Below are positions 1 to 4,840 of a stretch of 46,457 bases of DNA, in pieces. Position 1 is the stretch's first letter; every line of letters begins with the position of its first letter. Source of the DNA: a phage; NCBI GenBank assembly GCA_026328835.1, contig GCA_026328835.1_4850.1; one strand, given 5' to 3'. A program made the position numbers and the translations under genes. The notes beneath the pieces are model-generated. The model ran no database searches. It saw only the letters and a list, made by a program, of their open reading frames with translations, and was not told where the DNA came from.

Positions 1-256
1 GACCGTACATTAGCACGCCGTCAGGGTCTACAATTTTGCAGTGCATACCAACCGGAGGCAGACCTTCGCCGTTCCATGCTGGCTTTTGCAATGCGGCGAG
101 TGAGGATTCGTATTGCTGCTTAGTAACCACATCAGCAATCCAGTCGTCGCATTTTTTGAGCTTAAAGCCACTGCAATAGTCAGATTCCATTTCAAACAAC
201 TGGCCCTCACCGTCCTGCTCTACAGCGTCAATACCTGTTGTGATAGAATTAATCAT
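1..256 (-). CDS. hypothetical protein; reads through window start, frame continues at 46438-46457 if ends are joined
   Basis: ATG at 256-254 (reverse); open to position 1; translation MINSITTGIDAVEQDGEGQLFEMESDY... acidic and soluble; joined ends give stop TGA at 46440-46438. Confidence 0.4.
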   Translation of the reverse strand, partial: MINSITTGIDAVEQDGEGQLFEMESDYCSGFKLKKCDDWIADVVTKQQYESSLAALQKPAWNGEGLPPVGMHCKIVDPDGVLMYG

Positions 257-275
257 TATTTGAACAGGAGGCAGA

Positions 276-554
276 ATGAAACTATCGCAGCGCGGCATGG
301 AAACGCCTGGAATCACCGATGCCGTGGATATATCGCCTTACATCACCACCGAGACAACGCAGAATCAGTTTGATGCACTGACAAGTCTCGCCACCGACAT
401 CGGCATTGACACTTTCCGAAAATCAACGCTGTTGAAGAAGCATAATCTTCGCTGCTTCTCATGTGTCGTCGCGCACTTTGTTGTGTGGGGCGAGAAGACT
501 GACGACAAAGCAAAACGCAAAGCTGAAAAAGAGGTTTACTGGTATGGCTATTAG
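276..554 (+). CDS. GH24 (T4/P22-type) lysozyme-like protein, apparently internally deleted
   Basis: RBS AGGAGG at 266-271; C-terminal TQNQFDALTSLATDIGIDTFRKSTLLKKHN matches the conserved NQ(F/Y)DAL...ST.L..LN block of GH24 phage lysozymes as recalled; only 92 aa, no recognisable catalytic Glu/Asp region. Confidence 0.4.
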   Translation: MKLSQRGMETPGITDAVDISPYITTETTQNQFDALTSLATDIGIDTFRKSTLLKKHNLRCFSCVVAHFVVWGEKTDDKAKRKAEKEVYWYGY

Positions 555-1008
555 CAAAAACATGAAGGCGTTTCTGGATATGCTGGCGTACAGCGAGGGC
601 ACGGATAATGGGCGACAGAAAACCAATAATCATGGCTATGATGTAATTGTTGGTGGCTCACTGTTTACTGATTACTCCGACCACCCTCGCAAGCTGATTA
701 GCCTGCCAAAGCTTGGCATCAAATCCACTGCCGCCGGGCGCTATCAGGTACTGGCTAAATTTTATGACGCATACAAAAAGCAGTTGCGTTTACCTGACTT
801 CTCTCCTGTATCACAGGACGCTATTGCAATGCAGCTAATCCGTGAATGCAGGGCCACCGCTGATATTGAGGCTGGTCGCATTGATGATGCCATTCATAAA
901 TGCCGCTCGCGCTGGGCTTCATTGCCGGGCGCTGGTTATGGTCAGCATGAGCAGAAGCTGGATAAGCTGATTCAGGTATACAAGGATGCCGGCGGAGTTG
1001 CGGCATGA
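544..1008 (+). CDS. endolysin, lambda R-type lytic transglycosylase
   Basis: MAISKNMKAFLDMLAYSEGTDNGRQKTNNHGYDVIVGG..FTDYSDHPRK...WASLPGAGYGQ closely matches lambda R as recalled; ATG 544 preferred over ORF-track start 463. Confidence 0.85.
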   Translation: MAISKNMKAFLDMLAYSEGTDNGRQKTNNHGYDVIVGGSLFTDYSDHPRKLISLPKLGIKSTAAGRYQVLAKFYDAYKKQLRLPDFSPVSQDAIAMQLIRECRATADIEAGRIDDAIHKCRSRWASLPGAGYGQHEQKLDKLIQVYKDAGGVAA

Positions 1009-1244
1009 AAAAGCTAAGCAACTGGTTGCTCGGCGCATGGATTTCGTTCTGCTCACTGTTGCAACTATGGCCTGATGCAATGATGCATGTGTGGGTAATG
1101 ATGCCGGATGACCTGAAAGCGGCGCTACCGCCAATCGTGGTTAAAGGTGTGAGCTACTCCATCATGCTGATTGGTATCCTCGGCAAAATGCACGGCATGA
1201 GGAAGGAAAACCGGAGGCTACGCAATGATGTCGATTCTCGCTAA
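1005..1244 (+). CDS. putative holin (two predicted TM segments, charged C-terminus)
   Basis: 79 aa; hydrophobic LSNWLLGAWISFCSLLQLW and ALPPIVVKGVSYSIMLIGILG, basic tail KMHGMRKENRRLRNDVDSR; ATGA overlap with endolysin stop. Confidence 0.55.
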   Translation: MKKLSNWLLGAWISFCSLLQLWPDAMMHVWVMMPDDLKAALPPIVVKGVSYSIMLIGILGKMHGMRKENRRLRNDVDSR

Positions 1245-1716
1245 ATACTGGCGACCAATGGCAATTATTATAATTGTTGCTGCTGGCGCGCTGTGGGTGG
1301 CAAATAAGGTGTCCAGTTATGGTGAGCAGAGATACAACGACGGGTATGCGAAGGCCGTAGCCGAACAAAAGGCCGCAGACGAAAAAGAGGAGCAACGACG
1401 CAATGCAGAACTGCAAAAGATTCAGGCCGACGCACAGCAAAGGATTGATGCTGCGCGCAATGATGCTGTTAATGCTGCTGCTAAGTCTGGCAGGTTGCAG
1501 CAACAGCTCGCAAATATCCGCAAGCAGCTCGTCGGATATTCCACCTCTGAGTCCATTGGCAATCCAGCCGCAGAAACCGGAGTTTTGCTCTCAGACGTGC
1601 TCAGCAAATCTGTCGAAAGAAATAGACAACTGGCAGATTACGCTGACAGGGCAAGAGAAGCAGGATTAGCGTGTGAGGCGCAGTATAATTCGCTGCGCAA
1701 TAAAAAAGCCCCATAA
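1225..1716 (+). CDS. i-spanin (Rz-like)
   Basis: RBS GGAGG 8 nt upstream; N-terminal TM (MAIIIIVAAGALWVA) then coiled-coil periplasmic domain; position after endolysin/holin. Confidence 0.7.
   Translation: MMSILAKYWRPMAIIIIVAAGALWVANKVSSYGEQRYNDGYAKAVAEQKAADEKEEQRRNAELQKIQADAQQRIDAARNDAVNAAAKSGRLQQQLANIRKQLVGYSTSESIGNPAAETGVLLSDVLSKSVERNRQLADYADRAREAGLACEAQYNSLRNKKAP
1448..1669 (+). CDS. o-spanin (Rz1-like lipoprotein) embedded in +1 frame inside Rz
   Basis: MLRAMMLLMLLLSLAGC lipobox; proline-rich mature part SDIPPLSPLAIQPQKPE; RBS AAGGA 1439-1443; wholly inside 1225-1716. Confidence 0.65.
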   Translation: MLRAMMLLMLLLSLAGCSNSSQISASSSSDIPPLSPLAIQPQKPEFCSQTCSANLSKEIDNWQITLTGQEKQD

Positions 1717-1731
1717 TGGGGCTTTGTTTTA
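1704..1731 (+). terminator. rho-independent terminator
   Basis: aaagcccc-ataa-tggggcttt stem-loop followed by T-run. Confidence 0.7.
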
Positions 1732-1750
1732 GAATATACCAAGGTCAATT

Positions 1751-2011
1751 TCATTTATCATACAGCTTTCTCATTCTCTCTTCAGCTTCACTTTCTGTGA
1801 ATGTGAGACGCTCATTCATTGATTCTGCCTCATCAAGTGCTTTCCTGATCTCAAGTCCATTCATAGCATCAACAATTTTCATTGCGGCGTCGCAAAGTGC
1901 GTTGTTGCTCACCCAGCCATCAACAGACTCCACGGCATCCATAATGGCATTAGCTTCGCGCTCAGTTAATTGAATGATATAATTCTTATCTTCCATTTCA
2001 TCCTCACTCAT
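1751..2011 (-). CDS. hypothetical protein
   Basis: ORF track 1751-2125; internal start MSEDEMEDKNYIIQL at 2011 preferred. Confidence 0.4.
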   Translation of the reverse strand: MSEDEMEDKNYIIQLTEREANAIMDAVESVDGWVSNNALCDAAMKIVDAMNGLEIRKALDEAESMNERLTFTESEAEERMRKLYDK

Positions 2012-2430: not shown

Positions 2431-2732
2431 TATTTAATCTCTCCATTCAGTTCATTAACAATTAACGTTGCATAGCCAGCAATATCTTTCCAGCTGTCAT
2501 CATAAGTCGGGTCGCCATTCAGAATACGCCCAATCTTGTGCTGAATCATGTCGAGCGCCTCGCGCTGGCTTGGTGTCAGATTGTTCCACCCATCCACTTC
2601 GCGCATGACGGTTTTCAGTTCCTGCATGATTTCAGCGCCATCTTTGAATTTGCCGTATCGGCTACCGCGCGCGGTGATGAGTTGCTCTGTTGCGTCAGTA
2701 TGGCGCCTATCGCCCGTGATTTGTGAACTCAT
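2430..2732 (-). CDS. hypothetical protein
   Basis: 100-aa ORF; 1-nt overlap with downstream gene. Confidence 0.45.
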   Translation of the reverse strand: MSSQITGDRRHTDATEQLITARGSRYGKFKDGAEIMQELKTVMREVDGWNNLTPSQREALDMIQHKIGRILNGDPTYDDSWKDIAGYATLIVNELNGEIK

Positions 2733-3219
2733 TGTGATGTATTCTCCTGAATTCTTTTATTTTTGCTTCCGCTTCTCTTATGTCAGAAAAGTAACCAACT
2801 GTGAATCTTTTGCCATTTACTCCAACTCTTGCATGCCACTTGTTGTGCGATGAACTCCAGTTAACCCCCTTGATACCGCTAGTGTTGTTTTTGTTCATTG
2901 CTTTGTTGTGGCTATTCTCAAATTTGCTGGCCTCCCTTAAATTGCACGCCCTGTTGTCATTGCGAATTCCATTGATGTGATCAATCATTTCACTTGCTGA
3001 TGAGCCATGAATACATATCCATGCCAGTCTGTGAGCAAGAAAAGCCCTACCGCAAAGAATTATTTGCACATATCCATCTGGCTTTAAGTAGCCTGCAACG
3101 CTCCCTTTTTCTGCAATCCTATTCCTTGTCTTTAGCCATTTAAATTCCCCAGTTAGTGGATTGTAGTCAAGGTAACTCAATATAAACTCCCTACTCGGCT
3201 CCTCCCTCCTATGTCTCAT
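2707..3219 (-). CDS. HNH homing endonuclease with AP2-like DNA-binding domain
   Basis: HRLAW...DHINGIRNDNR..NLR HNH motif plus NTSGIKGVNW...W.A AP2-like segment. Confidence 0.8.
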   Translation of the reverse strand: MRHRREEPSREFILSYLDYNPLTGEFKWLKTRNRIAEKGSVAGYLKPDGYVQIILCGRAFLAHRLAWICIHGSSASEMIDHINGIRNDNRACNLREASKFENSHNKAMNKNNTSGIKGVNWSSSHNKWHARVGVNGKRFTVGYFSDIREAEAKIKEFRRIHHNEFTNHGR

Positions 3220-4220: not shown

Positions 4221-4698
4221 ATCACAAATCATGCGCGTAATAATCAATCATCCGGGAGCGACGCGTGCATACATTGAGAGGCATTGCAGAGGAAAGCACT
4301 CAAGCACCACAACGCATCGCCTGCATGAGATGCTTGCTCTTGGCTTCATTCGCCGCGAGAAGTCAGTGATTCGTGGAGGTAAGTGGCAGTACAAGTATTT
4401 CATCTCTGATGATGCGGCAGGTATTGATGATGCAATTAAGTGTCATTTGCTTGATAACGAAGGAGCAGAAGTGAAAGAAATCAGCGCAGCCACTGGCATT
4501 GATTACCGAATCGTAAAAAGCCGTATCCGCATTATGTTTCATAACGGCGATGTAACGCGAAGCTATGACCACCACAAGAAGCTGTGGCGCTACTCATGGC
4601 ATGAGCAGGAAGTAAACGTGAGCAACCTGTTTAATTCACTTCTTCGCAGCGCAAGAGGTCAGCATGGTAAAAGCGAAACGCAAGAAGCAAGAGTATGA
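4210..4698 (+). CDS. hypothetical protein, possible tandem winged-helix DNA-binding protein
   Basis: internal start MDYKSQIM at 4210 overlaps upstream stop; two helix-rich repeats. Confidence 0.45.
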   Translation: MDYKSQIMRVIINHPGATRAYIERHCRGKHSSTTTHRLHEMLALGFIRREKSVIRGGKWQYKYFISDDAAGIDDAIKCHLLDNEGAEVKEISAATGIDYRIVKSRIRIMFHNGDVTRSYDHHKKLWRYSWHEQEVNVSNLFNSLLRSARGQHGKSETQEARV

Positions 4699-4840
4699 GC
4701 CACTGCCGCCATGCGAAATGTCAGGAATTCCGCAGCAGGAGGTTGTGATTCTCACCGAAGCTGAGTGGCGCAAGGTGGCAAGAGTGCAAATCATGTTCCG
4801 CAAACTTGCTGAGGACGTACTAAATGAGATGGGCTATTAA
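4664..4840 (+). CDS. hypothetical small protein
   Basis: hand-translated 58-aa ORF MVKAKRKKQEYEPLPP...LNEMGY, frame checked codon by codon; not in >=60-aa ORF track. Confidence 0.3.
   Translation: MVKAKRKKQEYEPLPPCEMSGIPQQEVVILTEAEWRKVARVQIMFRKLAEDVLNEMGY

Follow-up and report, generated by a model that had tools for sequence, protein, structure and literature searches.

A half-lysozyme, apparently kept by selection, at the head of the lysis cassette of a Skatevirus-group siphophage

Phage lysis of Gram-negative bacteria is generally understood to rest on three functions, those of a holin, an endolysin and a spanin, and globular endolysins are treated as single-function proteins. Why, then, does a lysis cassette carry a piece of one endolysin directly in front of another, intact one? 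The question is raised by a stretch of phage DNA of 46,457 nucleotides (GenBank assembly GCA_026328835.1, contig GCA_026328835.1_4850.1), hereafter called the window, which belongs to a siphophage of the Skatevirus group. An open reading frame (ORF) of 92 amino acids (aa), with its ATG at position 276 and its TAG at 552-554, resembles part of a GH24 lysozyme and is followed at once by a lambda R-type lytic transglycosylase. The original prediction, made from the letters of the window, described the ORF as a degenerate second lysozyme gene fused onto the start of the functional endolysin, and took it for either a remnant of an endolysin replacement or a non-catalytic derivative. The comparisons presented here favour the latter. 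With a probability of roughly 70%, the ORF encodes a stand-alone, catalytically inert half-lysozyme that is maintained by selection as a non-enzymatic accessory lysis protein.

Homology and predicted fold of the half-lysozyme

The relationship to GH24 lysozymes is real and confined to one lobe. The protein matches the Pfam family PF00959 (Phage_lysozyme) at 39.3 bits (E=1e-9) against a curated cut-off of 22.3, and the match is limited to residues 19-75, aligned with profile positions 55-111 of 125; the first 54 profile positions, which include the catalytic Glu, Asp and Thr, have no counterpart. Among solved structures, the GH24 protein 6et6 is matched with E=3e-8, and residues 19-76 match chain residues 71-128 of 146 in P22 lysozyme (2anv). 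The original prediction had thus correctly described both the GH24-like C-terminus and the lack of the catalytic Glu/Asp region.

The missing part was lost from within the gene and not by a simple N-terminal truncation. In tblastn comparisons with the full-length GH24 lysozyme of Escherichia phage HC6, eight of the first nine residues are identical (window 276-302), and HC6 residues 68-143 map to window 327-539 with 43% identity (E=1e-19). The MKLSQRG start is therefore the start of the full-length enzymes, after which about 50-58 residues are absent. These would hold HC6 E15, D24 and T33, that is, the catalytic Glu, Asp and Thr, together with the whole N-terminal lobe. Approximately, HC6 residues 10-67 are replaced by about eight residues, and this stretch contains the position of the catalytic Glu (E11 in T4, E16 in P22, E15 in HC6). 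A second, small deletion has removed a loop of 5-7 residues near the C-terminus. The exact end-points could not be read from the DNA: comparing codons 7-22 of four of the short genes with the genes of HC6 and Klebsiella phage 6991 yielded matches of 7-15 nucleotides (nt), no better than chance. A split enzyme was also sought, and tblastn of the GH24 N-lobes of HC6, 6991, P22 and T4 against the whole window found nothing above chance except the first nine codons of the half-lysozyme itself.

Structure prediction gives the same picture. An AlphaFold2 model built from a 36-sequence alignment is all-helical and has no strands (predicted local distance difference test score (pLDDT) 90.4, predicted template modelling score (pTM) 0.84), so that the helical C-lobe alone is predicted and not the two-lobe fold with an active-site cleft. 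The beta-hairpin signature of the family, with its Asp or Cys and Thr (E-x8-D/C-x5-T followed by T-x-G-x-G), is likewise missing, as the TxGxG is absent and the model contains no strands. The top Foldseek matches in the PDB are GH24 endolysins, aligned over their C-lobes; P22 lysozyme superposes with a root-mean-square deviation of 2.5 A over 74 residues. Template modelling (TM) scores are 0.66-0.71 with normalisation to the query and 0.34-0.45 if the full-length targets are the reference. A BFVD model of the homologue from phage KFS-SE2, obtained independently, superposes on the AlphaFold model at TM 0.98.

Short genes of this family fall into three types, the window's being type 1. Invariant across all three is the pattern Q..[DE]A[LM].SLA..IG.[DE].F..S.L[LI].KHN..C[FY].C....F..W...R...E.E[IV]Y[WY]YGY. 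Within it lies an H-x3-C-x2-C motif that is also present in the full-length HC6 and Klebsiella 6991 lysozymes and absent from those of P22 and T4; it could be a metal or redox site. The aromatic tail YWYGY might be thought to result only from the overlap with the transglycosylase start, an explanation that we dropped, as the tail is kept where the next gene encodes a GH108 enzyme with a different junction.

Conservation, selection and origin

Loci of type 1 were gathered from IMG/VR, metagenomes and GenBank. The ORF is intact at 92 aa in 60 of 60, with the same start, the same ribosome-binding site (RBS; minor variants occur, and GGAGG is retained in nearly all) and a near-invariant overlap junction. 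The frameshifts, stops and variable lengths of a pseudogene are thus not seen, and types 2 and 3 are also intact at 85-98 aa. Type 2 proteins (93-96 aa) are 51-54% identical to type 1 and share its architecture and deletions, and type 3 proteins (85-98 aa) are approximately 45% identical. An exhaustive profile search of 1.84 billion cluster representatives added one further clade only, type 3.

The substitution pattern points in the same direction. Pairwise Nei-Gojobori estimates for 34 distinct type-1 sequences give 0.042 nonsynonymous substitutions per site (dN) and 0.376 synonymous ones (dS), a ratio (dN/dS, omega) of 0.11 and not the value near 1 of a pseudogene. The two off-frames of the same DNA give 1.46 and 1.98. 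Constraint is strongest in the lysozyme-homologous core (0.057 for codons 19-75) and weakest in codons 1-18 (0.32). For comparison, the ratio is 0.033 for the transglycosylase and 0.089 for the holin, and the other types of half-lysozyme have 0.10 (type 2) and 0.025-0.14 (type 3). As far as these sequences tell, the half-lysozyme is under purifying selection at the amino-acid level and is not decaying.

The gene behind it is a complete enzyme, as the original prediction had said. Its product matches lambda lysozyme R (1AM7) over its full length (E=4.7e-61, residues 3-152 against 4-152), is 66% identical to lambda R and retains the catalytic Glu in the SEG motif (AYSEGTD aligned with AWSEGTD), which places it among the lambda R-type lytic transglycosylases (GH104). 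The nearest transglycosylases outside this phage group are at most 69% identical. Its ATG at 544 overlaps the end of the half-lysozyme gene, stop codon included, by 11 nt in a different frame, and its Shine-Dalgarno sequence (GAGG) lies within the half-lysozyme ORF; the two genes overlap and are not fused, contrary to the wording of the original prediction. The transglycosylase frame is also open for 36 codons upstream of its ATG (window 463-543) in 58 of 60 relatives. A programmed frameshift joining both ORFs was considered and rejected: nothing in the off-frame dN/dS (1.5-2.0) points to coding, and the only fused ORF comes from a contig of 2.5x coverage (L085).

The association of the two genes is tight, and it is not exclusive. 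Searched from the transglycosylase side, 34 of 34 loci with a transglycosylase at least 80% identical to that of the window carry an overlapping short gene upstream, and a GH24-like neighbour was found at none of 13 more distant transglycosylase loci. Among isolate genomes, 143 records contain a close transglycosylase and 140 records a close type-1 half-lysozyme, with type 2 in addition. Type 3 genes overlap a transglycosylase 74% identical to the window's at two loci (L056 and L057). At two others (L052 and L055) they overlap, through ATGA, the gene of an endolysin with GH108 and PG_binding_3 domains (Pfam E=8e-26 and 1e-15), which is followed by a DUF7940 holin and spanins; in L052, a 45-kb contig with the same synteny, the GH108 gene occupies 4294-4809. 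The short gene is always the first of the lysis operon and always overlaps the working endolysin gene. Since it is kept beside two unrelated catalytic enzymes, a role tied to one of them is unlikely. The half-lysozymes linked to GH108 and to transglycosylase are interleaved, L055 being nearer to L056 and L057 than to L052, which suggests repeated module exchange.

Where the half-lysozyme came from is indicated by two sister phages. Klebsiella phage 6991 and Escherichia phage HC6 share the local synteny (portal, head-morphogenesis gene, a few minus-strand genes, lysis cassette), and each has a single full-length GH24 endolysin (145/146 aa) at the position of the half-lysozyme, with holin and spanin directly after it and without a transglycosylase. 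Between HC6 and the window the holin is 97.5% and the spanin 91% identical, and from the promoter region to codon 7, RBS included, their DNA hardly differs. As the sister cassettes consist of GH24 lysozyme, holin and spanin, this was probably the ancestral arrangement. In the lineage of the window, a lambda-type transglycosylase was inserted behind the GH24 gene, which lost its catalytic lobe. Sequence comparison thus identifies the half-lysozyme as an in-frame internal deletion product of a sister-type GH24 endolysin that kept its original promoter, RBS and about nine codons. In which order insertion, deletion and GH108 swap occurred, and how many swaps there were, follows from parsimony in a highly mosaic phage group and should be read as such. 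The endolysin replacement proposed in the original prediction is therefore supported as history by the GH24-only cassettes of the sister phages, and the short form is kept in relatives as a GH24-derived gene; the status of a remnant is what the selection data contradict.

Two further short, internally deleted GH24 proteins were seen in unrelated contexts, both scoring best against phrog_10457. One (P0177, 110 aa, L135 3001-3333) keeps a Glu in 'KLEGG' and lies directly after a 1722-aa ORF on a 46-kb contig that also encodes PolA; the other (P0070, 101 aa, L054 120-425) has the signature SLTADIGIDKF. Half-lysozymes may have arisen more than once.

Role of the half-lysozyme and competing explanations

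One alternative is a neutral remnant: what is left of the replaced endolysin gene would be a pseudogene that merely awaits deletion. The catalytic lobe is gone, an intact endolysin follows and the sister phages reveal the endolysin change, all of which a remnant would explain. It does not explain why the gene is intact in every one of the 60 loci, why dN/dS is 0.11 in frame and 1.5-2.0 off-frame at a dS of 0.38, why three types only about 45-54% identical still keep length, start, core and C-terminus, why a transglycosylase-only cassette occurs in none of the 34 loci searched from the transglycosylase side, or why the gene persists next to two different enzymes. The terms 'degenerate' and 'remnant' in the original prediction are hence not supported, and we regard neutral decay as very improbable. 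Databases and one paper instead treat the protein as a muramidase, which would make it a second, very small endolysin. The homologue from phage swi2 (279 nt, 89% identical), labelled 'muraminidase' or 'lysin2', was expressed as a trigger-factor fusion with approximately 1 log of killing reported (PMC8185280). Type 1 moreover has E9-x8-D18-x5-T24 (window 300-347), the spacing of the GH24 catalytic triad, and the Skate record notes an 'Ex5Dx8T motif' for the same stretch. However, the deletion took out all of the beta-sheet lobe together with the end of helix A that bears the Glu, and strands are absent from the model. Neither type 2 (K9/E10; position 24 is S, R or K) nor type 3 (no D18) preserves the acidic/Thr pattern, and E9 and D18 lie in the least constrained codons, 1-18 (omega 0.32). 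We rejected the pattern as a relic active site and consider it a coincidence: it occurs in type 1 only, in a non-homologous segment, without TxGxG or beta structure. The swi2 assay itself used a 52-kDa fusion and gave an effect of about 1 log at P 0.01-0.05 without a peptidoglycan-cleavage assay, and the true endolysin of swi2 gave the same effect without holin (PMC8185280). Muramidase activity is therefore improbable, and the label 'endolysin', which phrog_10457 also bears, is probably wrong in the databases and in that paper.

Two explanations would keep the gene selected and change what is selected. The ORF could act in cis only, as a translated leader for re-initiation on the endolysin gene, with a functionless protein. 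The ATG...TAG overlap and its almost invariant junction, the similar ATGA overlap with the GH108 gene and the Shine-Dalgarno sequence of the endolysin inside the short ORF all suit such coupling, which would however constrain the open frame and the last few codons and not produce an omega of 0.057 over codons 19-75 with free synonymous sites; a leader of a few codons would suffice, and yet a length of 85-98 aa is conserved. We find this account unlikely. An equally low standing is given to a dedicated partner of the lambda-type transglycosylase, be it a subunit of a heterodimer, a chaperone or an inhibitor. Perfect co-occurrence with the close transglycosylase and a gene overlap that favours equimolar synthesis speak for it. 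Against it, the same family also precedes the unrelated GH108/PG_binding_3 endolysin, type-2a half-lysozymes only 54% identical stand beside a transglycosylase 94-95% identical to that of the window, which means no co-variation, and no such partner is needed by lambda R and its other relatives (0/13 distant loci).

There remains the accessory protein that we favour, against which several observations also weigh. The dN/dS values come from pairwise comparisons that are not independent and not based on a tree, although the contrast with the off-frames is nevertheless large. Two metagenomic variants (P0029 and P0033) have compensated frameshift stretches in the C-terminal third, and in the low-coverage contig L085 (646-1377) half-lysozyme and transglycosylase form one ORF of 243 aa after a frame shift. 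These may be sequencing errors or tolerated variants; if real, part of the protein may be dispensable. Positions that line the old cleft vary among the three types ([FY]-N before the conserved G is T-D, T-S, A-A or A-S), and so do those that follow the conserved Trp. It is thus not obvious that canonical glycan binding in that cleft is conserved, and simple retention of a sugar groove is disfavoured. Finally, HC6 has a full-length GH24 enzyme and no short gene in nearly the same genomic background, which means that the function of the short gene is either contained in the full enzyme or non-essential.

The internal deletion removed most of helix A with the catalytic Glu, and the beta-sheet lobe with Asp and Thr, leaving a piece that is predicted to fold as the helical C-terminal lobe. 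The transglycosylase immediately downstream supplies wall cleavage. Under the accessory reading, the half-lysozyme would be synthesised alongside the endolysin late in infection, probably through translational coupling, and would assist lysis without being an enzyme. Most likely its helical lobe would bind either the wall (or wall precursors) or a lysis partner that stays constant, for instance the DUF7940 holin. As HC6-type phages manage with full-length GH24 alone, the role may already sit in the C-lobe of the ancestral enzyme, which has the same H-x3-C-x2-C motif. A more far-reaching version, which we put forward tentatively and think somewhat doubtful, is that the half-lysozyme is a new kind of non-enzymatic accessory, a C-lobe without catalysis that keeps a second activity of the ancestral enzyme needed with either GH104 or GH108 endolysins. 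This activity might consist in binding the wall or precursors of peptidoglycan, or in modulating the DUF7940 holin, and H-x3-C-x2-C could be the site involved.

Cassette layout, known systems and significance

The half-lysozyme is an extra first cistron of an otherwise canonical Gram-negative lysis cassette, in which endolysin, holin and i-/o-spanin are co-oriented and overlapping, with a terminator at the end (Table 1). It is the first cistron because the gene 5' of position 276 lies on the opposite strand. The strong RBS originally predicted for the ORF is present. No sigma-70 site was found upstream on the plus strand in a two-hexamer promoter scan, which did not call the candidate extended -10 element either; this element is kept in a DNA alignment of the window, Skate, one type-2 locus, HC6 and Klebsiella 6991 (TGATAAAAT in the alignment).

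Table 1 Features of the lysis cassette, in window coordinates.
Feature	Position	Strand	Basis
Candidate extended -10 promoter element (TGaTAGAAT) of the lysis cassette	241..249	+	Read by eye; inferred
Ribosome-binding site AGGAGG of the half-lysozyme gene	266..271	+	Sequence; 4 nt before ATG
Half-lysozyme gene, 92 aa, GH24 C-terminal lobe, catalytic N-lobe deleted	276..554	+	ORF, Pfam, AlphaFold, dN/dS
Retained original 5' end, codons 1-9 (MKLSQRGME)	276..302	+	Homologous to N-terminus of sister-phage full-length GH24
Codons 19-75, lysozyme-homologous helical core, most constrained part	330..500	+	Extent of Pfam match; dN/dS
H56-x3-C60-x2-C63 motif	441..464	+	Invariant across half-lysozyme types and HC6/6991 lysozymes
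Lambda R-type lytic transglycosylase, intact, 154 aa, catalytic endolysin	544..1008	+	Full-length match to 1AM7/3D3D
Class II holin, 79 aa, DUF7940	1005..1244	+	Pfam PF25612 E=1e-9; phrog_13249 'holin' E=6e-52; Skate annotation
i-spanin, 163 aa, DUF2514	1225..1716	+	Pfam PF10721 E=7e-30; Skate annotation
Embedded o-spanin, lipobox LAGC	1403..1669	+	ORF translation; equivalent Skate ORF annotated as O-spanin
GC-rich hairpin terminator closing the cassette, probably bidirectional	1705..1725	.	Terminator-like site; Skate terminator at same place

Over window positions 226-1800, identity is approximately 90% with many phages, among them Skate and STGO-35-1 of Salmonella and Bas77-79 of E. coli. 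Positions 1-225 have no synteny to most relatives, whose matches start at 226, which places a mosaic junction right at the promoter. The minus-strand ORF there (2-256) continues beyond the left edge of the window; its first ATG, at 256, is 20 nt from the ATG of the half-lysozyme and sits atop the conserved extended -10 element. Many relatives (L006, L010, L011, L020, L021, L029, L030 and others) have an insert of approximately 120-190 nt between holin and i-spanin, with a 56-aa ORF in L006 (4950-5120); the window lacks it. Further downstream, a 170-aa ORF on the minus strand (2707-3219) resembles a homing endonuclease of the HNH_3/AP2 type, and its syntenic counterpart in L005 is marked PF13392 HNH_3, which fits the strong mosaicism of the phage group.

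The half-lysozyme shares features with several known systems and differs from each of them. With the full-length GH24 enzymes of HC6 and 6991, from the family of T4 E and P22 gp19, it shares the C-lobe (43-52% identity), the QFDA[LM]xSLA, STLLxKHN and CxxC motifs, and also promoter, RBS, first codons and first position in the cassette. Unlike them, it lacks some 50-58 residues and the 5-7-residue C-terminal loop, has changed cleft-lining residues and a new aromatic tail (E[VI]Y[WY]YGY), and always occurs with a second, catalytic endolysin. From protein-folding work, helix A and residues ~60-164 of T4 lysozyme, its C-terminal subdomain, are known as a unit that folds autonomously. The half-lysozyme resembles it in joining the start of helix A to the C-terminal helices in a compact predicted fold, and is unlike it in being a natural product, apparently selected, with only about nine N-terminal residues and the Glu-bearing end of helix A lost. 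Phages of Gram-positive hosts have non-catalytic endolysin subunits, such as PlyCB and the wall-binding-domain-only products that CTP1L, CD27L and Lys170 make from internal starts. These too are small, non-catalytic lysis-locus proteins accompanying a catalytic enzyme; however, they are domains for wall binding and form assemblies with the catalytic chain to which they belong, whereas the half-lysozyme is a relic of a different catalytic domain, encoded by a separate gene of a Gram-negative phage. The closest conceptual case is the muramidase domain of SpmX in Caulobacterales, a phage GH24 lysin that was co-opted and detoxified (bioRxiv 10.1101/418723). SpmX is among the fold and NCBIfam matches of the half-lysozyme, and in both, selection has retained a GH24 domain for some task apart from large-scale hydrolysis of the wall. 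In contrast to the free 92-aa C-lobe of the phage, the SpmX domain is a complete two-lobe one, bacterial and fused to other domains.

The gene family is already in databases and its swi2 homologue has already been expressed, so the object itself is not new. The swi2 'lysin2', Skate gp15 ('endolysin/glycosidase') and phrog_10457 belong to the same gene family (89% identical), and these records treat it as an active endolysin, although the catalytic half is absent here. A literature search for a truncated or inactive lysozyme in these phages returned only the swi2 paper and genome announcements, and no text was found that recognises the family as a selected derivative without the catalytic lobe. 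The Skate announcement mentions only the transglycosylase-type endolysin, and a comparative paper on the proposed 'Skateroufviridae' lists the endolysin among conserved genes without comment.

For annotation the consequence is practical: approximately 140 GenBank genomes, a PHROG family and one experimental paper call this protein an endolysin, and enzybiotic work on such a candidate probably uses an inactive protein. The locus can also be read as an experiment of nature on how autonomous a protein domain is, given the likeness of the remaining piece to the T4 lysozyme C-terminal subdomain. A lysozyme fragment without its catalytic lobe that has been kept through at least one, and probably two, changes of the catalytic endolysin points to an additional, undescribed role. 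Such a role would concern a large phage group with hosts in Salmonella, E. coli and Klebsiella, of which many members are under development for biocontrol. If the half-lysozyme does preserve a second activity of the ancestral enzyme, some of the 'simple' globular endolysins of Gram-negative phages would be bifunctional.

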